A DNA stretch of 64,000 nt, taken from an uncultured Chloroflexia bacterium. Lineage in GTDB: Bacteria > Chloroflexota > Chloroflexia > QHBQ01 > JADMIH01. The stretch spans positions 224,001 through 288,000 of the forward strand of contig CAWCNY010000006.1 in the NCBI GenBank assembly GCA_963797095.1, given 5' to 3'. The position numbers and the translations under genes are program-made. The number at the start of each line of letters is the position of its first letter. The first letter of the stretch is position 1. The notes beneath the pieces are model-generated. The model did not search any database. It saw only the letters and a program-made list of their open reading frames with translations, and had not been told where the DNA came from. Below, piece by piece: positions 35,982-52,667 of this stretch.

Positions 35982-36416
35982 ATGCTCGTACTGGCATCCA
36001 CGCTGGCACAGGCCACACCGATCCCCGTGGCGCAGGCTGTCACTTCCGTTTCCCAGAATCAGACTGACTGGCTTGTGATCGCCCTATTTTTCTCTTTCGC
36101 GCTGGGGATCGCCGTGACCATGATGTTCATTCCCGCGCTTTTGCGCCCCAAGGCTCCTAACCCCATCAAGGGTACGCCCTTTGAATCTGGTATGCCCCCG
36201 ATTGGGGAAGCGCAGGCGCGCTACACGATCCGCTACTACGTGATCGCCATGTTGTTCGTGGTGTTCGATATAGAAGCCGTGTTCTTCTATCCGTGGGCTG
36301 TAGCGTTCAATACTATCGGCTGGTATGGGCTGGTAGAGATGATACTGTTTATTGTCTTACTTTTAGTTGCGTATATATACGCCTGGAGAAAGGGGGCACT
36401 CGATTGGGTCTCCTAG
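35982..36416 (+). CDS. nuoA: NADH-quinone oxidoreductase subunit A
   Basis: [29 protein letters not shown]. Confidence 0.96.
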
Positions 36417-36910
36417 TAAATAGATTCCGTCCAAGTGTGGTTACTACCACCGCGGACTTCCTTTTTAACTGGGCGCATAGATATTCTATGTGGCCCTTGA
36501 TACTGGGAACTGCTTGCTGCGCCATCGAGATGATGGCGGTTGGCATATCGCGCTTCGATATGCTTGAGCGGTTCGGGATGCTCTACAGGTTCTCGCCCCG
36601 CCAGAGCGATGTGATGCTGGTGTGCGGCACGGTTACCAAGAAGTTCGCGCCCGTAATGCGCACCCTTTGGGACCAGATGAGCGAGCCTAAGTGGTGCATC
36701 GCGGTCGGCAACTGCGCCAGCGCGGGCGGGCCTTTCCCGACCTACGCCGTGGTACAGGGCATCGACGAAGTGGTGCCGGTGGACATCTATATACCCGGCT
36801 GCCCGCCCAACCCTGAGGCGATCTTCTACGGCATATTGAAGCTGCAAGAGATCGTCCAGCAGCAGACGCTTGCCCGCACAGGCCCCAAGCCGGAGAAGAA
36901 GCAAGCATGA
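36404..36910 (+). CDS. nuoB: NADH-quinone oxidoreductase subunit B
   Basis: [28 protein letters not shown]; probable TTG start overlapping the nuoA end. Confidence 0.95.
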
Positions 36911-36912
36911 TT

Positions 36913-37001
36913 AGTTGTCGGTAGTCGGTAGTCGGATGCAGTGTCAGTTCCGACTACCGACTACGGACTACCGACTACGGACTACCGACTACCGACTACC
37001 G
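36913..37001. repeat. Inverted heptamer arrays (nuoB/nuoC junction)
   Basis: agttgtc ggtagtc ggtagtc, then its complement c(c/g)gacta x7 (36950-36998). Confidence 0.93.
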
Positions 37002-37010
37002 AGGGAACAA

Positions 37011-37538
37011 ATGGCAGACTATGTACCGTTCAAGGGTGGATACGTTCCGCCGCCTGCCGGGGTTGACCCTGAAGAGAACCCGGCAGTGCAGAAGTTGCGC
37101 GAGGCGATGCCCGATGTCATCGAGGGCGTGTCGGCGTATCGCGATCAGGTGACGATCCGGGTGTACAAGGATAGAATCGCGGAAGTATGCAAGTTCTTAC
37201 GCGATACACCGGGCCTTGAGTTCGATTTCTTGACTGACCTGACGGCGGTGGACTACCCCACCAGACCACAGCGGTTCGATGTGGTGCTCCACCTCTACAG
37301 CATGACTCAGAACCACAGGCTCAGGGTAAAGGCTGGCGTTGGTGAGAACGAGACGATACCGAGTGTAACGTCAGTGTGGAAAGCCGCCAATTGGGAGGAG
37401 CGCGAAGCCTTCGATATGTTCGGCATGGTATTTTCCGGTCACCCCGACCTGCGCCGCATTCTCCTGCCCGAAGATTGGGAGGGCTACCCCCTTCGCAAAG
37501 ACTACCCGCTAGGTGGATACGGGACATACACTTCGTAG
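37011..37538 (+). CDS. nuoC: NADH-quinone oxidoreductase subunit C
   Basis: [42 protein letters not shown]. Confidence 0.96.
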
Positions 37539-37543
37539 GTCGA

Positions 37544-37599
37544 GGACGAAAGACGAAAGGTGAAGGACGCAAGTCAGTTGGCACCCTTTGCTTTTCGTC
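37544..37599. repeat. Heptamer tract with complementary arm (nuoC/nuoD junction)
   Basis: ggacgaa agacgaa aggtgaa ggacgca ... caccctttgcttttcgtc. Confidence 0.65.
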
Positions 37600-37611
37600 G
37601 GAGGAACGAAT

Positions 37612-38886
37612 ATGGCTATCGAAGATCAGATTGAACTAACGGATGGCACCGACGCGCGCGTGGAGCCTGGGCGTGCCGTAGTGCAGACGGGAATTGGCCC
37701 CACAAACAACCTTGTGCCCCAGTCACAGGACATGATGCTCAACCTGGGGCCGCAGCACCCGTCGACGCATGGCGTGTTGCGCGTGCTCCTTGAGCTTGAC
37801 GGCGAAGTGGTGCGCAAAGCGATACCCGACATGGGCTATCTGCACCGGGGTATCGAGAAGATCGGGGAGTACAGGCAGTACAACCAGTTCGTGCCCTGGA
37901 CCGACCGCATGGATTATATAGCGGCTTTCACCAGCAATCTTGCTTTCGTGCAGGCTGTGGAAGAACTCATGGAGATTGAGATCCCTGAGCGGGCCAAATA
38001 CCTGCGCGTGATCTTCTCGGAATTGCAGAGGATAGCTTCTCACCTGCTGTGGCTGGGCACCCACTTGATGGACCTGGGCGCGACCACCGTCTTCCTGTTC
38101 GCCTTGAGGGAGCGAGAAAAGGTGCTTGATTTGCTGGAGCTGCAAACCGGCGCCCGCCTCACCCTGAACGCTCAGAGGGTGGGCGGCTTCCCAAAGGATC
38201 TCCCTCCAGGCTGGATTGAGAAATGCAAAGCATTCCTCGACGAGATGCCCGGCCACTTTGTCGAGTACGATTCGCTGCTGGCCGAGAACCCGATATTCCT
38301 GCGCCGCGTGAAGGGCGTGGGCGTGATCTCAGCCGAGGACGCGATCCAGTGGGGCCTTACCGGGCCGAGCCTGCGCGGGTCGGGTGTGGCCTATGATATA
38401 CGCAAGGCTATGCCCTACGCCGTGTACGATAGGCTCGATTTCGAGGTGCCTATAGGCACGCATGGCGATGTATATGATCGTTTCCTGGTCAGGATGGAGG
38501 AGATGCGCCAGAGTATCAAGCTGATCAGGCAGTCCCTCGATCAATTGCCGGGTGGGCCTGTAATGACCGAGGATATGAGGGTAGCTCTGCCGGGGAAAGA
38601 GGCCACCATGACCAGCATCGAGGCCATGCAGAGGCACTTTATCCTGGTGATCCACGGCTTCAAAGCGCCGGTGGGCGAGTACTATTCGGCTGTCGAGTCG
38701 CCCAAGGGCGAGTTAGGCTGGTATATAGTGTCGAACGGCGAGAACCACCCTTACAGGGCGCGCTGCCGGGCCGCCTCATTCGTCAACTTGCAGTCGCTGC
38801 CGATAATGACGGAAGGCGGCATGATCGCCGACGTGATCGCCAATATCGGCTCGCTCGATATCGTAATGGGTGAGATAGACAGGTAA
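37612..38886 (+). CDS. nuoD: NADH-quinone oxidoreductase subunit D
   Basis: NLGPQHPSTHGVLR, GYLHRGIEK, DRMDY, ESPKGE, GEIDR. Confidence 0.97.
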   Translation: MAIEDQIELTDGTDARVEPGRAVVQTGIGPTNNLVPQSQDMMLNLGPQHPSTHGVLRVLLELDGEVVRKAIPDMGYLHRGIEKIGEYRQYNQFVPWTDRMDYIAAFTSNLAFVQAVEELMEIEIPERAKYLRVIFSELQRIASHLLWLGTHLMDLGATTVFLFALREREKVLDLLELQTGARLTLNAQRVGGFPKDLPPGWIEKCKAFLDEMPGHFVEYDSLLAENPIFLRRVKGVGVISAEDAIQWGLTGPSLRGSGVAYDIRKAMPYAVYDRLDFEVPIGTHGDVYDRFLVRMEEMRQSIKLIRQSLDQLPGGPVMTEDMRVALPGKEATMTSIEAMQRHFILVIHGFKAPVGEYYSAVESPKGELGWYIVSNGENHPYRARCRAASFVNLQSLPIMTEGGMIADVIANIGSLDIVMGEIDR

Positions 38887-38920
38887 TTCGCCGCTAATCG
38901 CACTGAGGAGAGTATGTTAA

Positions 38921-39706
38921 ATGGATGAAAGCCCCCAGAGCGGACACGAGGAGAGCACAGGCGAAACGCTGAACAGCGTGCGTAGCGGGCATCTGACCCC
39001 GCACGAAGAGCGCGCCGCGGCTGCGCGTGTGGACGACAGCACCGCCATCGCGCCCGGTCGGGAGATACCGCCCACCGAGATCACGAGCATACTTGACCGC
39101 TACCGCCATGTGGACCCTGAAGAGGCGATGATCCCGGTTTTCCAGGAGATGCAGACGCAGTTCGGCTATATCACGCAGGCGGCTGCCGACCAGGTGTGCG
39201 CCGAGCTGGGCCTGCCTGAGGCTGACGTGTACGGGGTGCTCACTTTCTACTCCTTTTTCCGGTATACACCGAGAGCAGGGCACGTGATCATGTCGTGCGA
39301 AGGCACAGGGTGCTATGTGCGTGGGGCCGCCGCTGTGCGCGCCGCCGTTGAAGAGCGCCTGAATGTGGGACCGGGCGAAACTACGGCCGATGGTCACTGG
39401 ACGTTCGAGCCGCAATCGATCTGCCTGGGGGCGTGCGATCTCGGCCCGCTGGTCGATATCGAGGGGCGCTTCTATTCCTATGTGACGTCTGAGAAGATGA
39501 ACCAGATCATCGATCGGTGGGAAAACAGGCAGCCGGACGAAGACGAGCCTGTAGGGGATAATATGACGGGTGGCGTCGACCACCACGCTTACGCGAGTAA
39601 TTATGGCTTCGGCCCCAACTCCGAGGAATTGTACGCGGGGTACGAGGTGGAACGATATATGCAGAGTACGGACGGAGGGCAAAAGACGAAGGACGAAGGA
39701 CGCTAG
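38921..39706 (+). CDS. nuoE: NADH-quinone oxidoreductase subunit E ([2Fe-2S])
   Basis: VYGVLTFYSFF, CEGTGC..G, CLGAC..GP. Confidence 0.93.
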   Translation: MDESPQSGHEESTGETLNSVRSGHLTPHEERAAAARVDDSTAIAPGREIPPTEITSILDRYRHVDPEEAMIPVFQEMQTQFGYITQAAADQVCAELGLPEADVYGVLTFYSFFRYTPRAGHVIMSCEGTGCYVRGAAAVRAAVEERLNVGPGETTADGHWTFEPQSICLGACDLGPLVDIEGRFYSYVTSEKMNQIIDRWENRQPDEDEPVGDNMTGGVDHHAYASNYGFGPNSEELYAGYEVERYMQSTDGGQKTKDEGR

Positions 39707-39750
39707 AGTATGAGTCGAACTGTTCGTCTTGGTCCATTGTCATTCGTCGG
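39670..39750. repeat. Heptamer tract with complementary arm (nuoE/nuoF junction)
   Basis: ggacgga gggcaaa agacgaa ggacgaa ggacgct (in the last nuoE codons), then ttcgtct tggtcca ttgtcat tcgtcgg. Confidence 0.7.
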
Positions 39751-39766
39751 CTAACTGGAGAGAGTA

Positions 39767-41701
39767 ATGGCTGAAATAACACATTATTATCCAATGGATG
39801 TCAGCAAGCGCTCGCAGTTCACACGCGAGCAGTTTGAAGATAGACAGGCTGCGGCGCGCAAACGCTGGCAGGCGACTATGACCGCCGCCGATGTGCCGGT
39901 GATCGTGGTGCCCTGGGGCTCCTCATCTGTGGCTCATGGAGCAGACAGTACTTTCGAGACGATCCGCAAGTGGGTCGAAGCGAACAGCGTGAAGGCAATA
40001 GTGCGCCGGGCAGGCCCTATGGGCACCGATTACCTGGAGCCTCAAGTAGACATAATATTGCCGGGGCAACCGCGCGTCTCCTATGCCCACATTACCGCCG
40101 ATAAGGTGCCGGAACTGCTGGAAAGCGTGCTGAAGGACGGCAATTTGCGCGCCGACATGGCTGTATGCATCTACGGCACAGACGAGTGGGATGGCGCTGA
40201 GATCGGGCTGAAGGGTATCCCTGCTGCTCGCGAGCTAGATTTCTGGAAGCTTCAGCAGCGCGTGGTGTCGCGCAACCTGGGCTATATAGACCCTGAAAGC
40301 ATTGACGATTACATTGCGCGTGGCGGCTACGAGGCGCTCAAGCGTGTGCTGTTTAGCATGTCCCCCGAAGACGTGATCAAGATGGTAACCGACGCCGGGC
40401 TGCGAGGTCGCGGGGGCGCAGGCTTCCCGGCAGGCATCAAGTGGGACGGCGGGCGCAAGGCCCGCAAGACGCCCAAGTACGTGATCTGCAACGCCCACGA
40501 AGGCGAGCCTAACGTCTTCAAAGACCGCAGGCTGCTGGAAGGGGACCCCCACGAAGTACTCGAAGGGATGATCATCCAGTGCTTCGCGGTGGGCACGCCC
40601 TGGTCCTATATATACGTGGGTGACGAGTACCCGCTGGCGATCCACAGGACCAAGGTAGCCGTGCAGCAGGCATACGAGGCTGGCCTGCTGGGCGACAACA
40701 TCATGGGGTCGGGCTTCTCCTGCCACGTGGACGTGCAGATGGGCGGTGGGGCCTACATATCGGGCGAGGCTTCGGCCCTCATGTTCGGTATCGAGGGGAA
40801 GCGCGCCATGCCGCGCACCAAGCCCCCGCGCTCGGTGGAGGCTGGCCTGTTCAATCTGCCCACAGTCGTGAACAACGTCGAAACGATGGCGTGCGTGCCC
40901 GCCATAGTAGTGAATGGGGCGCAGTGGTTCGCCGGGATCGGAACTGAAAAGAGCAAGGGCACCAAACTATTCACACTGATGGGCTCGGTTGAGCGCATAG
41001 GGATGTACGAGTTGCCGCTGGGCCGTACCATGCGTGAGTTGGTGTATACTTGCGGGGGCGGTTGCCTGGATGGACGCCCCTTCAAGGCGATCCAGACGGG
41101 AGGCCCATCGGGCGGCTGCCTGCCGGAGCAGAATCTCGACCTGATCATGGACTTCGACTCGCTCAACAATTACGGCGGCACTATGGGGTCGGGTGGCTAT
41201 GTTGTATACGACGACACGACCTGTATCGTTGATATGAGCCGCTACTTCGGGAGGTTCAACAGGTACCAGTCTTGCGGTAAGTGTGTGCCCTGTCGCGTCG
41301 GCACCAAGAACCTGCTCCACATGGTCGACCGGATAGCGCTGGGCAACAGCCGCCCTGAAGATATCCCGATCATGAAGAAGTGGAGCGACCACGTAGTCGA
41401 GATGTCGTTGTGCGGGTTGGGCCAGACCGCGCCTTTGCCTCTGCTGGGCGGCCTGCGCTATTTCCTCGATGAGTTCGAGGAGCATATTAATGACAAGCAC
41501 TGCCGGGCGGGCAAGTGCGACGTGCTTGTAGAGCGCGAGCAGAAAGGGCAGAAACACACCCCGGCCTGGTTGGAAGAGACTTATCTGCCCGCCAGGATCG
41601 GTGAGCGCTACAGGAAGCAGTTCGGCGCGATCACGCAGGGGAATGGGCAAGTGCAGGGCACCGCGCCCACTTTGACCGAGGGGGAGGCGGTGCAAAGATA
41701 A
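39767..41701 (+). CDS. nuoF: Complex I flavoprotein subunit F, long HydB-like form
   Basis: GLRGRGGAGFP, CNAHEGEP, AYISGEASAL, NNVET, SCGKCVPCR..SLCGLG; extra N-terminal thioredoxin-like domain. Confidence 0.93.
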   Translation: MAEITHYYPMDVSKRSQFTREQFEDRQAAARKRWQATMTAADVPVIVVPWGSSSVAHGADSTFETIRKWVEANSVKAIVRRAGPMGTDYLEPQVDIILPGQPRVSYAHITADKVPELLESVLKDGNLRADMAVCIYGTDEWDGAEIGLKGIPAARELDFWKLQQRVVSRNLGYIDPESIDDYIARGGYEALKRVLFSMSPEDVIKMVTDAGLRGRGGAGFPAGIKWDGGRKARKTPKYVICNAHEGEPNVFKDRRLLEGDPHEVLEGMIIQCFAVGTPWSYIYVGDEYPLAIHRTKVAVQQAYEAGLLGDNIMGSGFSCHVDVQMGGGAYISGEASALMFGIEGKRAMPRTKPPRSVEAGLFNLPTVVNNVETMACVPAIVVNGAQWFAGIGTEKSKGTKLFTLMGSVERIGMYELPLGRTMRELVYTCGGGCLDGRPFKAIQTGGPSGGCLPEQNLDLIMDFDSLNNYGGTMGSGGYVVYDDTTCIVDMSRYFGRFNRYQSCGKCVPCRVGTKNLLHMVDRIALGNSRPEDIPIMKKWSDHVVEMSLCGLGQTAPLPLLGGLRYFLDEFEEHINDKHCRAGKCDVLVEREQKGQKHTPAWLEETYLPARIGERYRKQFGAITQGNGQVQGTAPTLTEGEAVQR

Positions 41702-41775
41702 AACGCAGGGCTACAGCCTACACGATTGGTGCGATATAATGGCAACAATCCGTGCGTAATTTAGGAGATGGTGCT

Positions 41776-42012
41776 GTGACGAAAGCTATTGATTTTACAG
41801 ATGAGACTTACGCTCTGCTAGAAGAAATGAGTAGGAAGATGGGTTTTGCTGACATAGAGCATCTTGTCAAGAAGTTACTGTGGGAAGCTGAACTTCAAAG
41901 AAGAAAGGAGCTTGGGAGGAGAATCAACAAGCATCGAGAAGCAATGCTCTCGCAGTATGGCGTGATGAAAGACAGCACCGAATTGATTCGTCAGGACCGA
42001 GAGCGCCAATAG
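41776..42012 (+). CDS. Putative antitoxin (VapB-like)
   Basis: Small AT-richer ORF ending DSTELIRQDRER, typical of PIN-associated antitoxins; own TATAAT at 41735; precedes a PIN gene. Confidence 0.75.
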   Translation: MTKAIDFTDETYALLEEMSRKMGFADIEHLVKKLLWEAELQRRKELGRRINKHREAMLSQYGVMKDSTELIRQDRERQ

Positions 42013-42016
42013 CCAA

Positions 42017-42461
42017 ATGGCTGACCTTATAGTAGACAGTACCTTATAGTAGACAGTAGTGTTGCCATCAAGTGGTTCATAACCGAAGTCGACAGTGCCG
42101 ACGCGCTCAAGGTGTTCGCAAAATATCAAAGTGGCCATATAACATTGCTTGCTCCTGACCTTATTAGCGTAGAAGTAAGAAACAAAATATGGCGCAAGTG
42201 TATATTCGAAGGTATGTCCAGTCAGATGCAGACCAGATAATAGCGGATTTTCGCGCAGTTGGAATCGATTTTACGGCTGATGCACTTTTGCTTGATGATG
42301 CTTACCGGTTAGCGGTAGCTTATCGATGCACTGTTTACGATGGGCCATACGTCGCCTTGAGCGAACGCAAAGGATGCGAACTGGTGACGGCAGACAAGCG
42401 CTTATTCAATGCAGTAGGAACGGTATTGCCGAACATCGTATTGTTAGCAAATTGGTCATAA
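42017..42461 (+). pseudogene. vapC: VapC (PIN domain) toxin, doubly frameshifted
   Basis: Reconstructs as MADLIVDSSVAIKWF..APDLISVEV.N..W...TVYDGPYVALS..LVTADKRL; broken by a 17-bp duplication (42024-42057) and a 1-bp deletion near 42218. Confidence 0.85.
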
Positions 42462-42529
42462 CTGAAAAATTACGTGGTATATGATGCATAACTCATAGAG
42501 AAGAGCAGACCCAATATCGAGGAGCGACC

Positions 42530-45529
42530 ATGGCAGCAGCCAAAATGATCACTATCAGCATAGACGGCACTAAGGTTCAGGTTCCGGACGGCACATACGT
42601 GTGGGATGCCTGCCGTATGATCGGCATTGAGATCCCGAACTTCTGCTACTTGCCGGGTCTGCGGGCTTTCGGCGCTTGCAGGATGTGCGTGGTTGAGGTA
42701 TCGGGTCGCCGCGGCTTCGAGCTTGTCACTTCATGCTCCACTCCCGCAACCGACGGTATGGAAGTGCGCACCGTCAACGACCGTGTATGGCAGCAGCGCA
42801 ACATGGTCATGGAGGCGCTCGACACCGACCACCCGGTTGACTGCCCTATCTGCGAGGCCAACGGCGATTGCCGCCTGCAAGACTACGGATACGAATACAG
42901 CGTGACAGGCACCGATACCAGCCGCCCCAAGATCGTGCGCCCCGCCGAGCGGTTGTCTCCTGCTATCGACCTTGACCGCGACCGCTGTGTGGTTTGCGGG
43001 CGCTGTGTCCGCGAATGCGACGAAGTGGTTGGCGCGACCGCCCTGGCCTTCGTGGAGCGCGGCGTGGAGTCGCTGATCGATGCGCCGTTCGGCAAGTCGC
43101 TGCTCGATACGCCCTGCACCTCGTGCGGGATGTGCGTGGAGGTGTGCCCTGTTGGCGCGCTCTCCAGCCGTATCAACCTCAAGATGGAGCACCACTGGTG
43201 GCAGCGCAAGACCGAGACCACCTGCAACTACTGCTCGGTGGGGTGCACGATCAAGTTGGGCACTACGCGCAACCAGGTGTACGAGGTGAGGACCGACGAT
43301 GCGGTGGGCCTGAACGATGGCGTGACCTGCGTCAAGGGCAGGTTCGCTATGGACGTGGTCAACTCGAACAACCGCCTCTCGACGCCGCTTGTGCGCGAAG
43401 GCGGCAAGCTAGTGCAGAGCACCTGGGACGACGCCCTCGATATGATGGCTTCGCAGTTCAAGGAGTACAAGGGCGCTGTTGGGGTGGTAGCTTCCTCCAA
43501 GCTTACCAACGAGGAAAACTACCTGTTGCAGAAGGTGACGCGCCTCGGCCTCGGCACCAACAACATAGATTACGATGGACGCGCCCGGGAAGGTGACATA
43601 TTGCAGGTGCTGGCCGACATGCTCGGCTACCCCGCGCAGACCAACAACCTGATCGACACCCGCCAGAAGGCAGGGGCTGTGCTCCTCATAGGCGATAGCA
43701 TCTACGAGACCCACCCCGTTTACGCCTACCAGTTGCAGCGCATGATCCGCCTGACCAACAAGCAGGTGGTCGTGATCAGCCCTCGCTGGCAGAAGATGTG
43801 CGAATGGGCCGCCCTCTGGCTCTCGCCGAAGGCGGGTACAGAAGAGGCGCTGCTGGGCGGGATCGCTCGCGTTATCCTCGATGCGGGTCTGCTTGACCAG
43901 GCTTACCTGGACGGCAGAACCGACAACGGGGCAGCTTTCCTGAAGGCGCTGGCGGGCAAAGCGTTCTCCCTGGAGAGTGTGAGCAAGGCTACCGGAGTGC
44001 CCGCCGGGGATATAGTGGCTGCCGCCTACATTTACGCCACGGGCGGCAAGGACACGGGACCTGTCGACCTGCCTGGGCCCACTCACCCCAGCAATCTGCC
44101 CACCCAGAACGGCAAAACCGAGCCGAGCTATGCTGACGCGATCAAGAACTACGGCACCAAGCGCGGCGATACTCAATTCCCGCCCGCCACTATCGTGTTC
44201 CCCGCATCGGGGCCATATACACTGACCACTGCCGCCGTCGCGCAACTGACCAACCTGGCTTTGCTGACGGGCAACGTGGGGCGCGAGGGAGCCGGTGTGA
44301 ACCCGCTGGTGGTCGATAGCAACAGCATGGGCGCGAACGATATGGGCTGCCAGCCGGGCATGTTCCCAGGCTATCGCCCTGTGAACGCCGATAATGCCCG
44401 CGAGCTAGAAGAGTTATGGTCGCTCGACCCCGAACGCGCCAGCCAGGAAGTGCCCTCGGAGCCGGGCCTGAGCCTCGCCAACATGCTTGAGGCCATCGAG
44501 AACGGCGACATCAAGGCGCTGTGGGTGGTCGGCTCCAACCCTGTGCTTGGCAGCGACGACCCGGATGCCGCCAGGGTGCGTGCGGCCCTCTCCAAGCTGG
44601 AATTCCTTGTGGTACAGGATATCTTCTACAGCGAAACCGCTGAGCTTGCGCACATGATCCTCCCCGCTGCCTCCTATGCGGAGAAAGAGGGCAGCTATAC
44701 CAATACAGAGCGGCGCGTGCAGCGCGTGCGGCCTGCGGTCCAGACGCTGGGCGCGTCAAAGACCGACGTGGAGATCATAGGCTTGATTGGTTACAGGCTG
44801 GGGGTGATCCTGCCTTCCATGCAGCCCGGCCTGGTGTTCGCCGAGATCGCCAGGGTTGTGCCCCAGTACGCGGGAATGTCCTACGCCCGCCTCGATATGA
44901 CCGAGTTCATCAACGACGCGATACCGATGCCTGCCGCCGTGTCGCTCAAGCAGTTAAAGGTGCGCAGCCTGATGTGGCCGTGCACCAGCAGGACCGATCC
45001 AGGTACGCCTGTGCTTTATACGGATACGTTTGGGACCGCCAGCGGCAAGGCGCGCATGTGGGTGCCGTCAGGCACGGGCGCTGCGTCCGAAGCGACCACG
45101 GGGGGCGCTCTTATGGCGACGTTCGGCTTCCCGCTCTTCCCGTTCAAGTCGGGCACGCTGAGCAGGCAAAGCTACGGCCTGAGCCGGGTCGAGCCTAACC
45201 CCAGGCTGCACCTGAACACGGCAGACGCGCTCAGACTGGGTATCAGTGACCAGATGCCCGTGCAGGTTACGATTGAAGGTGCGCCAGCATCTGAGCCTGT
45301 GTACGCGGTGTCGCAGGTGTATGACAGGATGCCGCAGGGCACGGCCTTCCTCGCGATGACTCTAGAGCAAGCCGGGACGAATGCGGCGGTACGCGCTGCC
45401 AGGCACGAGATAGCAGCCGATGGGACGGGCACGAAGAAGAGCATGCCGATCACCGTAACGCCCGCACCGAATATCAGGTTGGACGAATTGACCCCGATGG
45501 GGGCAGGTATTCTTACCGCTGGTGAGTGA
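42530..45529 (+). CDS. nuoG: Complex I subunit G, formate-dehydrogenase-alpha-like
   Basis: [2Fe-2S] FCY..GACRMC..SC; HPVDCPIC..GDC; CVVCGRCVREC; CTSCGMCVEVCP; CNYCSVGC..CVKG; Mo-bisPGD-fold domain without a Cys/Sec ligand. Confidence 0.9.
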   Translation: MAAAKMITISIDGTKVQVPDGTYVWDACRMIGIEIPNFCYLPGLRAFGACRMCVVEVSGRRGFELVTSCSTPATDGMEVRTVNDRVWQQRNMVMEALDTDHPVDCPICEANGDCRLQDYGYEYSVTGTDTSRPKIVRPAERLSPAIDLDRDRCVVCGRCVRECDEVVGATALAFVERGVESLIDAPFGKSLLDTPCTSCGMCVEVCPVGALSSRINLKMEHHWWQRKTETTCNYCSVGCTIKLGTTRNQVYEVRTDDAVGLNDGVTCVKGRFAMDVVNSNNRLSTPLVREGGKLVQSTWDDALDMMASQFKEYKGAVGVVASSKLTNEENYLLQKVTRLGLGTNNIDYDGRAREGDILQVLADMLGYPAQTNNLIDTRQKAGAVLLIGDSIYETHPVYAYQLQRMIRLTNKQVVVISPRWQKMCEWAALWLSPKAGTEEALLGGIARVILDAGLLDQAYLDGRTDNGAAFLKALAGKAFSLESVSKATGVPAGDIVAAAYIYATGGKDTGPVDLPGPTHPSNLPTQNGKTEPSYADAIKNYGTKRGDTQFPPATIVFPASGPYTLTTAAVAQLTNLALLTGNVGREGAGVNPLVVDSNSMGANDMGCQPGMFPGYRPVNADNARELEELWSLDPERASQEVPSEPGLSLANMLEAIENGDIKALWVVGSNPVLGSDDPDAARVRAALSKLEFLVVQDIFYSETAELAHMILPAASYAEKEGSYTNTERRVQRVRPAVQTLGASKTDVEIIGLIGYRLGVILPSMQPGLVFAEIARVVPQYAGMSYARLDMTEFINDAIPMPAAVSLKQLKVRSLMWPCTSRTDPGTPVLYTDTFGTASGKARMWVPSGTGAASEATTGGALMATFGFPLFPFKSGTLSRQSYGLSRVEPNPRLHLNTADALRLGISDQMPVQVTIEGAPASEPVYAVSQVYDRMPQGTAFLAMTLEQAGTNAAVRAARHEIAADGTGTKKSMPITVTPAPNIRLDELTPMGAGILTAGE

Positions 45530-45552
45530 AACCAAGGACTCTAGGAGGAAAA

Positions 45553-46887
45553 ATGGACTGGGTGCTAATCCTGCTGAGGGCCATTCTGGCGTTTGCTATT
45601 GTGAATGTCACCCTTGTTATCGTCGCCTATGTTATCTACGGCGAGCGCAAGGTTGGAGCGCACATGCAGGCTCGCCAGGGGCCGAATAGAGCCGGGCCGA
45701 TAGGTGTGTTCCAGAGCTTCGCGGACCTCCTGAAGATGCTCAAGAAAGAAGACACCACGCCCAAGGACGCCGACAAAGTCGTCTTCTTCGTGGCTCCAAT
45801 AGTGGCCGCCTTCGCCAGCATCGCTGTGGTGGCAGTAATACCGTGGAGTCCCGGCAGCATCGATATCTTCGGCGTGCAGATCCCCCTTTATGTGGGTAAC
45901 GTGAGTGTGGCCATGCTTGTGGCCCTGGCTCTCTCCTCGCTTGGTGTGTACGGCGTGCTGATGGCAGGCTGGTCGTCAAACAGCAAGTATGCCCTGCTCA
46001 GCGGTATGCGCGCATCATCCCAGGTGATCAGCTACGAGCTTACTTTCGGCATCTCATTGATAGGTGTGTTCCTTCTCTCCAGCTCCCTTAGCCTGGTGGA
46101 TATCACGAACGCACAGAACGCCAGCCACAGCGCCACCCAGCCGGGTATCTGGTTTTTCTTATTGCAACCCGTTGCCATGCTGATCTTCTTCACATCGGCG
46201 CTGGCCGAAACGGCCCGCACGCCGTTCGACCTGATCGAGGCCGAATCGGAGCTTGTGTCAGGCTATCACACCGAGTACAGCGGTATGCGCTTCGGCCTAT
46301 TCCAGCTTGCCGAATTCAACGCCGCCTTCACAATGTCTGCCCTCACTTCGGTGCTCTTTTTCGGCGGTTGGAGCTCGCCTTTCGCGGCCTTCTTCGATAG
46401 CGGGCAGTCGCTGGCGGGCATCCCGGTGCTCAGTGGGCTGCTCGGCTCAGGCATACACTGGCTGATCCTGAAGATACTGTTCTTCATTTTCATCTTCTAC
46501 TGGCTGCGCTGGACGCTGCCACGCTTCCGCTACGACCAACTGATGGGCCTTTGCTGGAAGGTATTTCTGCCCGTCATCCTGGCAAACATCTTGGTGCTGA
46601 GCATACTCAAGCTGATCTTCTTCCCGCCTCCACCCGCCGGTGTAACGGTGGCAGAGCAAGCAGCCACCTATAACCCCTTGTTCTGGTGGATCCTGGTGGC
46701 GATTGAATTAGCCCTGGGTGTGGTAGCCGTCATTGGCCTCTCCCGAGTGTCAGGTCTTAGCTGGTTCGGCAAGGCAGAGCGTCCAGTGCTGGTTGACCGC
46801 CAGATTATACTGGTGCGCAACGTGCAGGGCGGGCGTGGGACGATTGAAGGCGAATCCCGAACTGTGAGCGTCTCACACGAGGCGTGA
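45553..46887 (+). CDS. nuoH: NADH-quinone oxidoreductase subunit H
   Basis: ERKV.AHMQARQGPNRAGP, SQVISYE, AETARTPFDL.EAESELVSGYHTEYSG, PRFRYDQLM. Confidence 0.97.
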   Translation: MDWVLILLRAILAFAIVNVTLVIVAYVIYGERKVGAHMQARQGPNRAGPIGVFQSFADLLKMLKKEDTTPKDADKVVFFVAPIVAAFASIAVVAVIPWSPGSIDIFGVQIPLYVGNVSVAMLVALALSSLGVYGVLMAGWSSNSKYALLSGMRASSQVISYELTFGISLIGVFLLSSSLSLVDITNAQNASHSATQPGIWFFLLQPVAMLIFFTSALAETARTPFDLIEAESELVSGYHTEYSGMRFGLFQLAEFNAAFTMSALTSVLFFGGWSSPFAAFFDSGQSLAGIPVLSGLLGSGIHWLILKILFFIFIFYWLRWTLPRFRYDQLMGLCWKVFLPVILANILVLSILKLIFFPPPPAGVTVAEQAATYNPLFWWILVAIELALGVVAVIGLSRVSGLSWFGKAERPVLVDRQIILVRNVQGGRGTIEGESRTVSVSHEA

Positions 46888-46916
46888 GGATTGGTAGAGG
46901 GAATTAGGAGAGAATT

Positions 46917-47486
46917 ATGGACTTAGTAAATCAGGTAGCGGGCTTCTTCGTTACGCTCCGGCAGTTTTTCAAGCCGCCTGTGACCGTCGAATACCCCGAT
47001 ACGATACGCGACCTCTCGCCCAGGTTCAGGGGCGCTGTGGGCCTCTTGCCACACCCTGAGACCGGGCGCGAGAAGTGCGTGGGCTGTGGCCTTTGCCCTC
47101 AGATCTGCCCAGTCGATGCTATCGCCATCGGCGTGATCGAGGACGACAGGCCGGGCGCTAACCACATGGACGATTGGAAGCCCTTCGAGCACTACTACAC
47201 CAAGGGCCTCGACCCGCTGGACCCTCGCGCCCGCACGCTCACTTACTATTACGAGATCAACGAGACACGCTGCATGTATTGCGGCCTGTGTGTTGAGGTT
47301 TGCCCTGTGGAGGCGATCATTATGAGCCACCACTTCGAGATGGCTACCGACAACCGGGCCAGGACCATTTATGACAAGGATAAGCTGCTCGACCTCGGCA
47401 AGATATATATGGCCGAGCTGAACGAGAAACTGGACGCTCAGGCGCGGGCCGCGAGCGTAAGCCAGGCGTCGGACGGTGGACGCTAG
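46917..47486 (+). CDS. nuoI: NADH-quinone oxidoreductase subunit I
   Basis: TVEYP..RFRG; CVGCGLCPQICP; RCMYCGLCVEVCP. Confidence 0.96.
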   Translation: MDLVNQVAGFFVTLRQFFKPPVTVEYPDTIRDLSPRFRGAVGLLPHPETGREKCVGCGLCPQICPVDAIAIGVIEDDRPGANHMDDWKPFEHYYTKGLDPLDPRARTLTYYYEINETRCMYCGLCVEVCPVEAIIMSHHFEMATDNRARTIYDKDKLLDLGKIYMAELNEKLDAQARAASVSQASDGGR

Positions 47487-47533
47487 CAGGCCGGGTAATT
47501 GTTTCGGAAAGGGAGCTTTGAAGGGGAGCTTTT

Positions 47534-48346
47534 ATGAATGTTGACGTTTTCGGCATCATGATACCGATACCACCGTTAGGGCAACTGGTGTTCATTCCTG
47601 CCGCGCTGATCTCGATCGTCTCCTCGATAATGATGATCACGCGCAATAACGCCGTGCACTCCGCCCTGTGGTTGGTACTCACCTTCTTCAACCTGGCGGT
47701 GATGTATGTGATGCTGGGGGCCGAGTTCCTGGCGGCTTTGCAGGTGCTTGTCTATACAGGTGCTATTCTGGTGCTCTTTCTGTTCGTAATTATGCTCCTT
47801 GGCCTAAAATCAGGGCCGCAACTAGGCGGCGTGCATACCGCCCAGCTAATCGCCGCCTGGCCCGTAGGGCTTATTCTTGCGGGGCAGATGGTCCTGATAA
47901 TCCTCTTCACCTCGCAGCCGCGCGAGGTGCACTACGGCGATATCATCGGCACCCAGGAAGTGCTCTGGAGCAACAACAATGTGTTGGCGGTAGGGGGCAA
48001 CGTTCAGGCCCTTGGGCAGACGTTGTACACGCAGTTCTTGCTGCCGTTTGAAATTGCGTCGCTGATCCTGCTGCTGGCGGTGATCGGCGCTATCGTGCTG
48101 GCGCGTAAGGAAGAACCGGCTGAGGTAGAAGAAGTAGTGCCGTCATTGGGTATCTCTGTGGGTCGCCGCTCGGTGTCTCAATCTCCCCAGGAAGAGCAAC
48201 TTGAAAAGAAACTCCTGCCTGCCCTGGGCGGAACCAAGTATGTGCCTGGCATGACCGAGGGTGAGGTGGAAGTACCGACGGTAGACCAGCCTGACGCGGT
48301 GGGCGCTGGCACCACATCCGGCATCGAGCCGAGTAATAAATCATAA
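47534..48346 (+). CDS. nuoJ: NADH-quinone oxidoreductase subunit J
   Basis: NAVHSALWL, AEFLAALQVLVYTGAILVLFLFVIML, LPFEIASLILL. Confidence 0.96.
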   Translation: MNVDVFGIMIPIPPLGQLVFIPAALISIVSSIMMITRNNAVHSALWLVLTFFNLAVMYVMLGAEFLAALQVLVYTGAILVLFLFVIMLLGLKSGPQLGGVHTAQLIAAWPVGLILAGQMVLIILFTSQPREVHYGDIIGTQEVLWSNNNVLAVGGNVQALGQTLYTQFLLPFEIASLILLLAVIGAIVLARKEEPAEVEEVVPSLGISVGRRSVSQSPQEEQLEKKLLPALGGTKYVPGMTEGEVEVPTVDQPDAVGAGTTSGIEPSNKS

Positions 48347-48413
48347 CTGCGATTTGCGAATTACCCTTTGTTGGACATTTGTTGCAGGTAATTTGTGAAT
48401 CGGGAGGGTTGAG

Positions 48414-48746
48414 ATGGACCTATCAACAGTATCGGAGACCACAGGCGTACCGTTGGCGTGGTACCTGGCGGTCAGCGCCATACTCTTTTGCCTGGGGTTG
48501 ATCGGCGTGCTGACCAGGCGCAACATACTGGTGATCTTTATGTCCGCCGAATTGATGATGAACGCCGTGAACCTGTCTCTGATTGCTTTCAGCACCTCGC
48601 TGAACTCGATGGCCGGGCAGAATTTCGTGGTGTTCGTGGTGACGGTAGCCGCAGCCGAGGCAGCGGTCGGCCTTGCGATCATTATCTCACTGGTAAGGCA
48701 GAAACCGACCGTAGATACGACGGATATAGATTTGCTTAAGGAGTAG
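48414..48746 (+). CDS. nuoK: NADH-quinone oxidoreductase subunit K
   Basis: [27 protein letters not shown]. Confidence 0.96.
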
Positions 48747-48840
48747 TCGGTAGTCGGAAGACTGGTGACGAGTGGCAAGTGGCAAGTGGCAAGTGGCAAG
48801 TGACGAGTGATCACCGACTACCGACTACCGACTACCAATC
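48742..48840. repeat. Mixed inverted heptamer arrays (nuoK/nuoL junction)
   Basis: agtagtc ggtagtc; ggtgacg agtggca x4 agtgacg agtgatc accgact x3. Confidence 0.93.
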
Positions 48841-48852
48841 CCGGAGGAGCGG

Positions 48853-50886
48853 ATGCAAGAGTTCTTCTTGAACATAATATGGGTTGTACCTCTGCTGCCG
48901 TTGCTGGCGTTCGTCATCAATGGGTTGTTCGGCAATAGGCTCGGCAAAGAGGGGCCTGGGCGACCACAGGGATGGCTTGCCGGCTGGCTCGCCACCGGGT
49001 TGGTCTTTGTGTCGTTCCTGGTGGCGGTGGGGGTGTTCATCGACATAGCAAACAGGACTGCCGGTACGCCTTTCGAGTACACACTCTACACGTGGATACC
49101 CTCTGGCGACTTCAAAGTCGATGTAGCATTCCTGGTGGACCCCCTGACGGCGATTATGTTGATGGTGGTGCTGGGCGTAGGCACACTGGTGCACCTCTAT
49201 TCTAACGGCTACATGGCCGACGATGACAGGCCCGACCGGGGCTTCGCCCGCTTCTTCACCTATTTGCCCCTCTTTGTCTTCAGCATGCTGATCCTGGTGC
49301 TGTCGAATAACCTCCTTCTTCTTTTCGTCGGTTGGGAGGCGGTGGGCCTCTGCTCCTATTTGCTGATCGGGTTCTGGTTCAACAAGAAAACGGCCAGCGA
49401 TGCGGCCAAGAAGGCATTTATCGTCAACCGCATCGGCGACTTCGGGTTCACGCTGGGGATCATACTCCTCTTTGTCAATTTCAGCGGGCTGGCAACCGAT
49501 CTGAAATACACCGATATTTTCAGCGCTGCTACCCACATGTTCGAGGAAAACCAGCCTTTGCTGCTGGGTAACATGACCATCATTTGCATCCTCCTCTTCA
49601 TGGGTGCGATGGGCAAGAGCGCGCAATTCCCCCTCCATGTATGGCTGCCCGACGCTATGGAAGGTCCCACGCCTGTTAGCGCCTTGATCCACGCGGCTAC
49701 AATGGTGACCGCGGGCGTGTACATGGTAGCTCGCCTCAACCCGCTGTTCTCGATGGCTCCCGATGCGCTTCTCGTCGTTGCCATTATAGGTACGACCACA
49801 GCAGTACTTGGTTCGACTATTGCCCTGGCCCAGACCGACATCAAACGGGTGGTTGCCTATTCGACAGTCTCACAGCTTGGCTATATGTTCGCGGGCCTGG
49901 GCGTTGGAGCCTGGGCCTCGGCCATCTTCCACCTGATGACGCATGCTTTCTTCAAGGGCCTTCTCTTCCTGGGCTCCGGCTCGGTGATACATGCGATGCA
50001 CCATGCGGGCATCCACGACCCCATAGCCTCGCAGGACATCAGGAACATGGGGCAAATGCGCAAGAGAGTGCCGATCACTTTCTGGACCTTCCTGATAGGC
50101 TCGGCAGCCAACGCGGGTGTGATCCCCCTCGCCGGGTTCTGGTCTAAAGACGAGATTATCGGGAATTCCATCCTCAGAGGCCATTGGGTGGTGGGCGCTC
50201 TGTTGATGGCCGCTGCATTCCTCACAGCCCTCTATATGTTCAGGCTGGTTTTTGTGGTCTTCTATGGAAAGGACAACGTGCCGAAAGAAGCAGCCAAAGT
50301 ATTGGACAGCGAGCGTGTAGAGCGTACTATGCCATTGATCTGGTTGCCGCTGGTGTTGCTGGCGATCCCCGCCGCCTTGATCGGCTTTGTGGGCGTACCA
50401 CCAAACTCCGGCGTTTTCCACCAGTTCATTGAGCCTGTGTTCGCTCCTGGCATCGAGCTAGCGGGCGGTGTAGAACCCAGCGCGGGTTTCACCCAGCCAA
50501 CCATGCTGATCATGCTTATTTCGACTATGGTGGCGATTGGAGGTATCTTCGTCGCCTATCTGGTGTACCGCAGGCGTACCGGTATTCCGGCGGCTCTATC
50601 CGAGAACCTGCCCTGGCTGTACAACGCACTGCTCAATAAATGGTACTTCGATGAGTTTTACCAGAGAGTAGTTGTGGATAGCTTCAAGGCCCTTGCTTAC
50701 TGGTCGTGGCGCTTCGACCAGAAGGTGATAGACGGTGCGGTGAACGGGGTAGCGGACTTCATAGCCGGATTCGGCGGCAGGCTGCGCAGGCTGCAAACCG
50801 GCTTCGTGCAGGGCTACGCGCTAGCCATAGGCGTCGGTGTGCTCCTGCTGGTAACTTACCTGTTCATAATCTTGCCAAAGGGATGA
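48853..50886 (+). CDS. nuoL: NADH-quinone oxidoreductase subunit L
   Basis: GWEAVGLCSYLLIGFW, NRIGD, GKSAQFPLHVWLPDAMEGPTPVSALIHAATMV, HAFFK. Confidence 0.97.
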   Translation: MQEFFLNIIWVVPLLPLLAFVINGLFGNRLGKEGPGRPQGWLAGWLATGLVFVSFLVAVGVFIDIANRTAGTPFEYTLYTWIPSGDFKVDVAFLVDPLTAIMLMVVLGVGTLVHLYSNGYMADDDRPDRGFARFFTYLPLFVFSMLILVLSNNLLLLFVGWEAVGLCSYLLIGFWFNKKTASDAAKKAFIVNRIGDFGFTLGIILLFVNFSGLATDLKYTDIFSAATHMFEENQPLLLGNMTIICILLFMGAMGKSAQFPLHVWLPDAMEGPTPVSALIHAATMVTAGVYMVARLNPLFSMAPDALLVVAIIGTTTAVLGSTIALAQTDIKRVVAYSTVSQLGYMFAGLGVGAWASAIFHLMTHAFFKGLLFLGSGSVIHAMHHAGIHDPIASQDIRNMGQMRKRVPITFWTFLIGSAANAGVIPLAGFWSKDEIIGNSILRGHWVVGALLMAAAFLTALYMFRLVFVVFYGKDNVPKEAAKVLDSERVERTMPLIWLPLVLLAIPAALIGFVGVPPNSGVFHQFIEPVFAPGIELAGGVEPSAGFTQPTMLIMLISTMVAIGGIFVAYLVYRRRTGIPAALSENLPWLYNALLNKWYFDEFYQRVVVDSFKALAYWSWRFDQKVIDGAVNGVADFIAGFGGRLRRLQTGFVQGYALAIGVGVLLLVTYLFIILPKG

Positions 50887-50892
50887 TATATG

Positions 50893-50969
50893 AGTTCCAA
50901 GTTCCAAGTTCCTAGTAGGCGGTGGTCGGAACCAGGAACTAGGAACTTGGAACTAGAAACGTTGAACCA
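50893..50969. repeat. Inverted heptamer arrays (nuoL/nuoM junction)
   Basis: Eleven in-phase 7-mers; perfect 17-bp stem 50900-50916 / 50938-50954. Confidence 0.93.
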
Positions 50970-51001
50970 GGGCTTACAACTCGGGCTGGAGGAGCTTTAT
51001 A

Positions 51002-52567
51002 GTGGATAACAACCTGCTGGACTTGCCCATCCTATCGATTATGGTGTATCTGCCGGCGCTTACGGCAGTGGTGCTGTTGTTCGTAAAGGACAACAGGCTG
51101 ATACGCCGGATCGCTGTGATAGGGGCGGCTCTCGACCTGGCGATTTCGATCATTGCCCTGGCGCTTTACGCCTACTACAAGTGGGGCAGCAGCGGTCCGG
51201 GCAGCTTCGATTTCCAGGAGAACGCCGCCTGGCTGGACAGTCTCAACGTCAGATATCACCTGGGCGCAGACGGTCTCTCCCTGTTGCTGCTGGTACTTAC
51301 CACCCTCCTGACCGTAATCTCTATTCTCGTCTCGTGGGACCCCATCAAGAAGCGCGTGCGCGAATTCTACATCGTGCTCCTCCTACTTGAGGCAGGCATG
51401 ATGGGTGTGTTCGTTTCGCTCGATTTCTTCGTCTTCTACATCTTCTGGGAAGTAATGCTTGTGCCGATGGCCCTTCTGATCGGCATCTGGGGTTCGTCCA
51501 ATCGGGTATACGCGGCTATCAAGTTCTTCCTCTATACGCTGGCAGGCTCGCTGCTCATGCTGGTGGCGATCATCGCCCTCTATTTGCAGCATGGCACCCT
51601 CGATGTCCTCACCCTACAGCAACTTGGCCCCGGCGACCCCCACGACTTCCAGAACTGGGTCTTCCTGGCCTTTGCCGCCGCCTTTGCGATCAAAGTGCCG
51701 ATGTGGCCGTTCCACACGTGGTTGCCCGATGCCCACGTGGAGGCACCCACGGCAGGCTCGATCATCCTGGCGGGGGTGCTGCTTAAGATGGGCGCATACG
51801 GCTTCATCAGGTTCGCCATGCCTATTTCCCCGGCGGGCGCGGCCCAATTTGCGCCGATCATGGTCGGCCTATCGGTGATCGCCATAATCTACGGGGCTTT
51901 GGTTTCGCTGGTGCAGCCCGACCTGAAGAAGCTAATCGCCTATTCGTCGGTAAGCCACATGGGCTTCGTCACGCTGGGCCTTTTTACAGGCATCTGGCTC
52001 AACCAGGAGGGCTACACCCAGGGCACACAGGGTATTGACGGCGCGATAATAGTCATGTTGTCGCACGGCTTCCTGACCGGCGGCCTCTTCCTCTGCGTGG
52101 GTGTGGTCTATAATCGCTTGCACAGCCGTCTGATCGCCGATATGGGCGGCATCGCCAGACCGATGCCGCGCTACGCCTTCTTATTCGGGGTGATGGTGTT
52201 CGGCTCGGTGGGCTTGCCTGGCCTGAGCGGCTTCATAGGCGAGTTTCTCACGATGGTTGGCGCGTTCCGGGCCGACTGGCTGGTGGGCACTATCACATCG
52301 TTCGTGGTTATCCTGGCAGCCTGGTATCTACTGTGGATGTTCCAGCGGGTGGTATTCAATAGAACCGCGCCGGCAGTGCGCAATTTCAAAGACGCTGATG
52401 CCATAGAAACAGGCTCGTTGGTGGTGCTGGGCGCACTCAGCCTGCTCGTGGGGGTCTACCCAGGTCCCTTGCTCGACTTCCTGCACCCGGCCACTCAAAC
52501 CTTGCTGACAACGGTTTCGGCCCAGGTGCCGAAGGTGGTGACGCTATCGCAGTTGTTCTTCAGGTAG
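51002..52567 (+). CDS. nuoM: NADH-quinone oxidoreductase subunit M
   Basis: FYIFWEVMLVP, KVPMWPFHTWLPDAHVEAPT, LLKMG, IAYSSVSHMG, SHG, PGLSGFIGEF. Confidence 0.97.
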   Translation: MDNNLLDLPILSIMVYLPALTAVVLLFVKDNRLIRRIAVIGAALDLAISIIALALYAYYKWGSSGPGSFDFQENAAWLDSLNVRYHLGADGLSLLLLVLTTLLTVISILVSWDPIKKRVREFYIVLLLLEAGMMGVFVSLDFFVFYIFWEVMLVPMALLIGIWGSSNRVYAAIKFFLYTLAGSLLMLVAIIALYLQHGTLDVLTLQQLGPGDPHDFQNWVFLAFAAAFAIKVPMWPFHTWLPDAHVEAPTAGSIILAGVLLKMGAYGFIRFAMPISPAGAAQFAPIMVGLSVIAIIYGALVSLVQPDLKKLIAYSSVSHMGFVTLGLFTGIWLNQEGYTQGTQGIDGAIIVMLSHGFLTGGLFLCVGVVYNRLHSRLIADMGGIARPMPRYAFLFGVMVFGSVGLPGLSGFIGEFLTMVGAFRADWLVGTITSFVVILAAWYLLWMFQRVVFNRTAPAVRNFKDADAIETGSLVVLGALSLLVGVYPGPLLDFLHPATQTLLTTVSAQVPKVVTLSQLFFR

Positions 52568-52580
52568 CCGGGGGATGGGG

Positions 52581-52657: not shown

Positions 52658-52667
52658 TGGGGGAGCT

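Follow-up and report, generated by a model that had tools for sequence, protein, structure and literature searches.

Can complex I occur in nature as a proton pump driven by NADPH? The question is raised by nuoF, a gene on the forward strand (39767..41701) of a 64,000-nucleotide (nt) stretch of DNA from an uncultured Chloroflexia bacterium of the phylum Chloroflexota (assembly GCA_963797095.1, contig CAWCNY010000006.1, positions 224,001 to 288,000), the whole of which is referred to here as the window. Complex I is generally classed as an NADH enzyme, and to our knowledge only mutagenesis has yet yielded proton pumping driven by NADPH. A preliminary description of the window had proposed, from the loss of a conserved Glu and the gain of an Arg in NuoF, a nucleotide pocket suited to the 2′-phosphate of NADPH. 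The comparisons reported here point the same way. The window is predicted to encode a complete, 14-subunit proton-pumping complex I with a HydB/Bfu-descended NuoF and an NADP(H)-type pocket, which would act as an NADPH-preferring, possibly NADPH-specific, quinone oxidoreductase, and we give this reading a probability of about 60%.

Nucleotide-binding pocket of NuoF

Translation of nuoF gives a stop-free protein of 644 amino acids (P0001) with the domains PF01512 and PF10589, a HydB/Bfu-type flavin mononucleotide (FMN) flavoprotein whose nucleotide pocket is predicted to be of the NADP(H) type. The three unusual motifs of the preliminary description, NAHEGEP (residues 242-248), AYISGEASAL (329-338) and KPPRS (352-356), were all recovered, as were the positions of the codons for Ala335 (nt 40769-40771) and Arg355 (nt 40829-40831). 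When NuoF was aligned with E. coli K-12 NuoF by BLASTP, the pocket stretch was free of gaps and RYICGEETAL of E. coli fell opposite AYISGEASAL. Ala335 corresponds in this alignment to E. coli Glu183, Ser336 to Thr184, Lys352 to Lys200, Arg355 to Phe203, Ser356 to Pro204, His244 to Asp92 and Glu247 to Glu95. The same equivalences were obtained from phmmer alignments to four solved HydB/NfnB chains, and the concern that Ala335 might have been misaligned with Glu183 falls away.

The second Glu of the GEE motif (E183 in E. coli NuoF, E185 in T. thermophilus Nqo1) binds the adenosine ribose, and in NADH enzymes a Phe 20 residues after this Glu stacks on the adenine. An NADH pocket was recognized by this Glu together with the aromatic residue and the Pro of PP[F/Y]P, and an NADP(H) pocket by a small non-acidic residue, an Arg and a Ser or Thr in the same positions. 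With Ala335, Arg355 and Ser356, NuoF lacks every residue of the first set and carries the second set in full. The codons concerned lie on the forward strand at 40769..40774 (Ala335-Ser336; Glu183-Thr184 in E. coli NuoF, Ser320-Thr321 in HydB of Thermoanaerobacter kivui, to which we return below) and at 40820..40834 (Lys352-Pro-Pro-Arg355-Ser356; Lys200-Pro-Pro-Phe203-Pro204 in E. coli, Arg337-Pro-Pro-Arg340-Thr341 in T. kivui). Other features of the site are kept, namely the Gly-rich GRGGAGFP loop of the FMN site, Phe220, Lys225, Glu245 and Glu247, and the cysteines of the N3 [4Fe-4S] cluster (Cys503/506/509/549).

The pocket had been presented as the peculiarity of one gene; it is instead a trait of a lineage. 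In a search of 5.8 billion proteins, the best 120 matches, which extend down to ~47% identity and among which are proteins assigned by name to Thermomicrobium roseum, Sphaerobacter thermophilus and Thermorudis peleae, have Arg355 and Ser356 without exception (120/120 each), and position 335 is occupied by Gly (67), Ala (51) or Ser (2). As read from these alignments, the pocket signature is lineage-wide and under purifying selection, beyond what chance would give. His244 (codon 40496..40498, forward strand) is present in 117 of the 120, the three exceptions, all with Asp, being HydB-like proteins that end in a ferredoxin domain. A strict DNA pattern of the His-containing motif was matched in at least 8 of the 401 genomes drawn evenly from the phylum, all of them in Chloroflexia, a lower bound since near variants of the motif escape the pattern. 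In some variant NuoF proteins (that of locus L120 in genome G025, and also P0049 and P0050) the first Glu of the ribose-binding motif is lost too, Leu334-Ala-Asp taking the place of Glu-Ala-Ser.

Coupled changes across the NuoF/HydB superfamily

Among the best 150 of 21,393 matches in a 50%-clustered library, taken together with the query (151 rows), loss of the Glu was almost always accompanied by Arg or His at position 355. Enrichment of this set with 11 Chloroflexota proteins, five loci and E. coli NuoF, and removal of four low-coverage rows, gave 164 rows, of which 121 combine Glu with F/Y/W/L, 35 combine a non-Glu residue with Arg or His, and 8 fit neither type. Position 356, missed in the preliminary description, follows the same division as a third coupled residue, being Pro in 117/121 canonical rows and Ser or Thr in 27/35 switch-type rows. 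NAHEGEP had been counted as part of the pocket signature, and this view is not upheld: His is found in 12/12 rows of the Chloroflexota clade, and T. kivui HydB and 16 of the 23 other switch-type proteins keep Asp. By these counts His244 is peculiar to the Chloroflexota clade and does not belong to the NADP signature.

In a FastTree phylogeny of these 164 superfamily members, built with the trait columns removed, a minimum of 13 changes was counted for the Glu state and of 14 for the Arg/His state. Over nine independent pairs on supported branches the two traits were concordant in 7.3 (mean) and opposed in 0, with a median p of 0.016. A separate sample was drawn from a named-genome collection by means of patterns placed outside the trait columns; 78 of the 80 listed loci, mostly HydB genes, were readable, and among these Arg or His was found in all 13 non-Glu proteins and Phe or Tyr in all 65 Glu proteins. 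To judge from both samples, loss of the Glu and gain of Arg or His are coupled and recurrent across the superfamily.

Characterized and engineered relatives

Natural precedent for the switch is provided by T. kivui HydB (PDB 8A6T chain B), a subunit of the NADP+-specific, electron-bifurcating [FeFe]-hydrogenase HydABC, which reads GESTAL and PPRT and so has Ser320, Arg340 and Thr341 in the columns of positions 335, 355 and 356. Four solved homologues with NAD(H) sites, HydB of A. woodii and A. mobile and NfnB of C. saccharolyticus and T. sibiricus, have GEETAL with PP[F/Y]P instead. The identities of the PDB entries were confirmed (8A6T/8BEW, T. kivui HydABC; 7Q4V/7Q4W, A. woodii HydABC). For purified T. 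kivui HydABC, the portion of PMC8578170 drawn on here gives activities of 20.8 U/mg with NADP+ and <0.005 U/mg with NAD+, and a Km for NADP+ of 48.8 µM. The corresponding portion of the cryo-EM paper (PDB 8A6T) assigns NAD+ to A. woodii HydABC and NADP+ to T. kivui HydABC, and a figure legend in it names Arg340 of T. kivui HydB as a contact of the bound NADP+. The Arg340 column is that of Arg355, and the Phe205 column that of Phe220. The part of the earlier proposal that linked Glu loss and Arg gain to a 2′-phosphate thereby gains a precedent in a natural enzyme.

T. kivui HydB scores 519 bits over the whole of NuoF and is the second best solved relative for the pocket domain. The two proteins share the three pocket swaps, the Gly-rich loop, the Phe (205/220) and the Cys3His ligands of the cluster site termed 'B2'. 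They differ in that T. kivui HydB alone has an N-terminal [2Fe-2S] cluster and a C-terminal 2×[4Fe-4S] ferredoxin domain, both missing from NuoF, and in that the partner of T. kivui HydB is a hydrogenase in a soluble bifurcating enzyme, whereas that of NuoF is a membrane arm.

Two engineered enzymes bear on the same positions. E. coli complex I with substitutions at NuoF Glu183 reportedly gains NADPH:quinone activity, a result said to come from Morina and colleagues in 2011, and the variants are said to keep their NADH activity and to make more reactive oxygen species. The same position is changed there (Glu183 = Ala335), also within a proton-pumping complex I; however, the engineered protein has a single substitution with Phe203 and Pro204 intact, whereas Chloroflexota NuoF has three natural, lineage-conserved changes. 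The E341A/S342R variant of C. necator HoxF accepts NADP+, as summarized in a passage of a review (PMC10127272), and like NuoF it has lost the ribose-binding Glu and gained an Arg. It is engineered and soluble, with the Arg beside the Glu position, whereas the Arg of NuoF is natural and occupies the aromatic position. Cyanobacterial HoxF was dropped as a natural NADPH comparator, a 2026 preprint having reported that the enzyme is not supported by NADPH. Two further homologues, C. autoethanogenum HytB and the beta subunit of M. thermoacetica formate dehydrogenase, are reportedly NADP-dependent; the papers found on HytB say nothing of its motifs.

Descent of the electron-input module

The best solved relatives of NuoF are HydB/NfnB/HoxF-type subunits of bifurcating enzymes, at ~510-540 bits, compared with ~315-341 bits for Nqo1/NuoF. 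NuoF falls below all three NCBIfam NuoF equivalogs (TIGR01959, 443.4 against a cut-off of 558.65 bits; NF010120, 349.6 against 389; NF008436, 335.6 against 749), and NuoE and NuoG are likewise under their cut-offs. In the tree, NuoF belongs to a Chloroflexota clade of 12 rows (support 97). This clade sits within the HydB/Bfu radiation, separate from E. coli NuoF and from the canonical NuoF that relatives carry as a second copy. These comparisons place NuoF by descent on the HydB/Bfu branch and not among ordinary complex I flavoproteins. The earlier designation as a complex I flavoprotein is to be corrected accordingly. Features in common with canonical NuoF/Nqo1/NDUFV1 (TIGR01959) are the FMN and SLBB domains, the N3 [4Fe-4S] motif and the place in the operon; the protein differs in its extra N-terminal domain, its 3Cys+His site and the replacement of the Glu, Phe and Pro of the NADH pocket.

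The cluster sites of NuoF are fewer than those of its HydB relatives. The N-terminal thioredoxin-like domain (approximately residues 1-168; 39767..40270, forward strand), which was aligned to HydB/NfnB N-termini, has no Cys in its first 129 residues, the first being Cys134, and the 'B5' [2Fe-2S] site of HydB is therefore lost. The B1 [4Fe-4S] site beside the FMN is kept (the four cysteines named above). The B2 ligands of A. mobile HydB are given in the passages of PMC9304861 used here as Cys438, Cys476 (or Thr), His525, Cys531 and Cys536; when mapped on that protein, NuoF retains four of the five (Cys486, His573, Cys579 and Cys584; 41222..41518, forward strand), the fifth position being Ala524 here and Arg or Ala in most homologues. 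The Cys3His ligands flank the N3/B1 cluster and are kept in 113-115 of the 120 homologues. A C-terminal ferredoxin domain (B3/B4) is absent, with no Fer4 domain detected and no Cys in residues 585-644. The Cys3His site thus persists although the ferredoxin domain that it would feed is gone.

A related arrangement, Nuo-Bfu, has been described (Schut et al. 2022, PMC9304861) as a 14-gene nuo operon with E, F and G of HydC/HydB/HydA-like (Bfu) descent, as is also the case here. The passages of that paper on Nuo-Bfu name Deferribacteres, Proteobacteria, Planctomycetes and Nitrospirae but not Chloroflexi, and they do not discuss an NADP-type pocket. In the same passages BfuB carries five clusters by definition, and Nuo-Bfu requires a complete BfuBC core with six, whereas Chloroflexota NuoF lacks B3, B4 and B5. 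On its domains and ligands, NuoF is best seen as a stripped-down HydB-type flavoprotein serving complex I, related to Nuo-Bfu but outside its definition.

The two neighbouring subunits of the input module have similar affinities. NuoE (261 amino acids; 38921..39706, forward strand; PF01257, E 4.4e-40) is a thioredoxin-like [2Fe-2S] subunit whose best solved relatives are HydC/NfnC; its four cluster cysteines are kept, with CxxxxC...CxxxC aligned to HydC/NfnC, and it is extended by ~55 residues at the N-terminus and ~60 at the C-terminus relative to solved homologues of 150-180 amino acids. NuoG (999 amino acids; 42530..45529, forward strand), assigned by Pfam, is shaped like a formate dehydrogenase alpha subunit, and its best solved relative is R. 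capsulatus FdsA (7e-126), M. smegmatis NuoG reaching only 2e-70. The full molybdopterin domains are retained, but the catalytic Sec/Cys-His dyad aligns to Arg-Glu. By this alignment NuoG is a dead formate-dehydrogenase-like subunit, as NuoG is in general, and formate was rejected as a donor through NuoG. The whole input module (E, F and G) of this complex I derives from the HydABC/formate-dehydrogenase branch, which bears on the evolutionary assembly of complex I.

Operon and genome context

Pfam searches identified all 14 core genes, in unbroken alphabetical order from nuoA to nuoN, at 35982-54197 on the forward strand, followed by gyrA. The quinone site is kept in NuoD (37588..38886, forward strand; PF00346, E 1.5e-114), in which the HPSTHG motif and the Tyr of DRMDY align with HPSAHG and the Tyr of E. 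coli NuoCD, residues that we take to be H224, H228 and Y273. The preliminary description's account of a complete nuoA-N operon with an intact quinone site is borne out by this gene order and alignment.

A canonical second nuoEFG was not found in the 93%-complete source genome (G000), in which nuoF gave the single PF01512 match; a single match was likewise obtained in 22 of 24 other genomes searched in the genus. The source genome does carry a transhydrogenase subunit, PntB. It also has two NDH-2-like genes, with 29-31% identity to E. coli Ndh (E 2e-40 and 7e-36). The better of these (29% identity, E 2e-40; G000:C6:220501-221649) lies on the same contig as the nuo operon, ~2.4 kb before the start of the window. 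A gene of the MqnA/D family of the futalosine pathway is present, and a menD search of the source genome remained below cut-off; from these genes, menaquinone use by the source organism is plausible. Phototrophic reverse electron flow to NADP+ was considered as a rationale and rejected, as a search of the 93%-complete genome for PF00124 revealed no reaction-centre gene.

A survey of the variant NuoF in nuo operons, suggested in the preliminary description, found it embedded in 8 of 12 variant loci: the window, six loci of the window's order (L119-L124; families f2 and f3) and one locus of a further family (L129). In family f2, a second PF01512 match with a canonical GEE/PPFP (or PPIP) motif was present in 5/5 genomes, and in both loci checked for context (L126, L127) the canonical gene belongs to a second nuo operon. 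PntB was found in 22/24 genomes of family f1 and 8/9 of family f3, and in 0/5 of family f2; these tallies, like those for second NuoF genes, include unpublished genomes (G016, G021, G022, G032) and many incomplete metagenome-assembled genomes (MAGs). Two f2 genomes, G025 and G027, have two complete nuo operons each, one with the variant NuoF (L120/L121) and one with the canonical NuoF (L126/L127), and PntB was not found in them. A different arrangement was seen in G040, of the same class, where a nuo cluster A-B-C-D-H-J-K-L-M-N (L128, G040:C1:1779000-1798900) lacks E, F and G, with I undetected at the threshold used; the sole NuoF-type gene of this genome belongs to a variant nuoEF pair (L118) ~1 Mb away.

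Proposed mechanism and alternative explanations

In the enzyme that we propose, Ala335 takes the place of the Glu that in NADH enzymes binds the hydroxyls of the adenosine ribose and that would collide with a 2′-phosphate. The adenine of NADPH would lie against Phe220 and Arg355, and the 2′-phosphate would occupy the space freed at Ala335 and be held by Arg355, Lys352 and Ser356, contacts suggested by the T. kivui figure legend and by general NADP-site chemistry. Hydride would pass to FMN and electrons through the N3-type cluster to NuoG, NuoI and NuoB and then to (mena)quinone, in a reaction that would be reversible in principle. In the source genome, NADH would enter the chain by way of the NDH-2-like enzymes, or else PntAB would first pass its hydride to NADP+. 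At the physiological potentials given in a passage of PMC9304861 (NADH ~-280 mV, NADPH ~-380 mV, menaquinone -74 mV), NADPH would add roughly 100 mV of driving force to a menaquinone-reducing pump, a plausible selective reason for its use.

A bolder version of this scheme is possible, and we offer it only tentatively: the lineage would run a strictly NADPH-specific proton-pumping complex I, a natural equivalent of the engineered 'energy-converting NADPH:ubiquinone oxidoreductase', that forms a two-step gear with PntAB, and the three-residue switch, with at least about 13 origins, would serve as a general predictor of NADP(H) use in the NuoF/HydB/HoxF/FdsB superfamily. In such a gear PntAB would spend one proton lifting the hydride of NADH to the NADPH pool, and NADPH would then let complex I pump fully against low-potential menaquinone.

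Several observations weigh against an NADPH-preferring complex I. The case draws on homology to one characterized NADP+ enzyme, ~50% identical in the pocket domain, and Ala or Gly at position 335 and Ser356 are similar, not identical, to Ser320 and Thr341 of T. kivui HydB. His244 replaces an Asp that is presumably FMN-binding, and it could alter the flavin chemistry in ways that are hard to foresee. The phylogeny comes from FastTree alone. Four of the 12 variant loci are detached from nuo genes, as nuoEF pairs (L118, L039) or nuoEFG trios (L125, L130), and in those lineages the variant module may serve other partners also, or instead. The distribution of PntB against a second complex I reflects no more than about two or three evolutionary changes among related lineages, with many incomplete MAGs, and is suggestive only. 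Finally, the E. coli Glu183 variants reportedly keep NADH activity, and loss of the Glu alone would by this precedent give dual rather than exclusive specificity.

The last point leads to the strongest competing explanation, which we nevertheless consider rather unlikely: that the pocket is relaxed and not switched, so that both NADH and NADPH are taken, NADH is the main physiological donor, and the swaps do no more than adjust affinity or product release. Phe220, the adenine-stacking partner, is unaltered, as is the Gly-rich loop, most relatives are without another NuoF, and aerobic heterotrophs produce much NADH. Dual specificity is also what single and double substitutions at the Glu position of HoxF give, according to the review passage cited above (PMC10127272). 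T. kivui HydABC, however, has the same three swaps and no measurable NAD+ activity in the data quoted from PMC8578170, and in NuoF the change extends beyond the Glu to the aromatic residue. The f2 genomes keep a canonical complex I beside the variant, which suggests that the two are not interchangeable, and PntB occurs where the canonical enzyme is missing.

The HydB/Bfu ancestry of NuoF raises a second alternative, in which NAD(P)H and reduced ferredoxin would jointly drive menaquinone reduction by confurcation, as proposed for the Nuo-Bfu enzymes of Geobacter, Planctomycetes and Nitrospirae. Nuo-Bfu operons are on record in the passages of PMC9304861, and the retention of four of five B2 ligands in 113-115 of 120 homologues would be in keeping with such a function; the same passages, however, make five BfuB clusters part of the defining Bfu core. 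NuoF lacks the C-terminal B3/B4 domain that is the proposed path for ferredoxin, its N-terminal B5 site has no Cys and its fifth B2 position is Ala, and we regard confurcation as very unlikely. The least probable explanation is that the nucleotide site has decayed, leaving NuoEFG as a structural relic of a complex fed by another donor or by formate through NuoG, for although three conserved NuoF motifs are off canonical, the N-terminal cluster is lost, E, F and G score under the NCBIfam equivalog cut-offs and NuoG is closer to FdsA than to NuoG, the deviating residues are conserved across 120 homologues, the Gly-rich loop, Lys225, Glu245/Glu247, Phe220 and the N3 cysteines are retained, and Arg-Glu at the Sec/Cys-His dyad makes formate oxidation unlikely.

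NADPH use by the Chloroflexota complex I is accordingly put forward as a strong prediction. A natural NADPH-type complex I or the Chloroflexota signature was not found described in the literature searched, which comprised titles and abstracts and passages of PMC4453560 and PMC9304861, the supplementary trees and alignments of Spero 2015, Schut 2022 and Katsyv 2023 lying outside that scope. The contact between Arg340 and NADP+ is already published; the Chloroflexota complex I is a predicted new natural variant, well supported by the comparisons above. If the prediction is true, redox balance and energy yield would have to be modelled differently for a lineage that is widespread in soils and hot springs, NADPH-coupled bioenergetics would gain a natural scaffold, and a three-residue rule could guide NAD versus NADP annotation in hundreds of enzymes (hydrogenases, formate dehydrogenases and bifurcating enzymes). 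The prediction is directly testable in relatives whose proteins are labelled with cultured species names, T. roseum, S. thermophilus and Thermorudis peleae.

Remaining genes of the nuo operon

All other nuo genes are on the forward strand as well. Upstream of nuoD lie nuoA (35982..36416; PF00507, E 7.9e-38), nuoB (36293..36910; PF01058, E 7.8e-29) and nuoC (36915..37538; PF00329, E 9.9e-50). The open reading frames (ORFs) listed for nuoA and nuoB overlap by ~120 nt, and the true start of nuoB is therefore probably further downstream. Downstream of nuoG are nuoH (45526..46887; PF00146), nuoI (46917..47486; 4Fe-4S dicluster families), nuoJ (47534..48346; PF00499), nuoK (48414..48746; PF00420), nuoL (48853..50886; PF00361 and PF00662), nuoM (51002..52567; PF00361) and nuoN (52668..54197; PF00361).

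The order is interrupted between nuoF and nuoG by an insertion (41752..42461, forward strand) that consists of an 86-amino-acid ORF followed by a broken PIN-domain (VapC-like) gene, the latter disrupted by a short tandem duplication and a change of frame. No family match was obtained in the insertion at E<=0.001, the PIN match being weak (E 0.0059, profile positions 73-116 of 120). It is probably a decayed toxin-antitoxin cassette that stands outside complex I. The gap between nuoF and nuoG measures 830 nt in the window, and the spacing ranges from ~0.3 to 1.7 kb among relatives.

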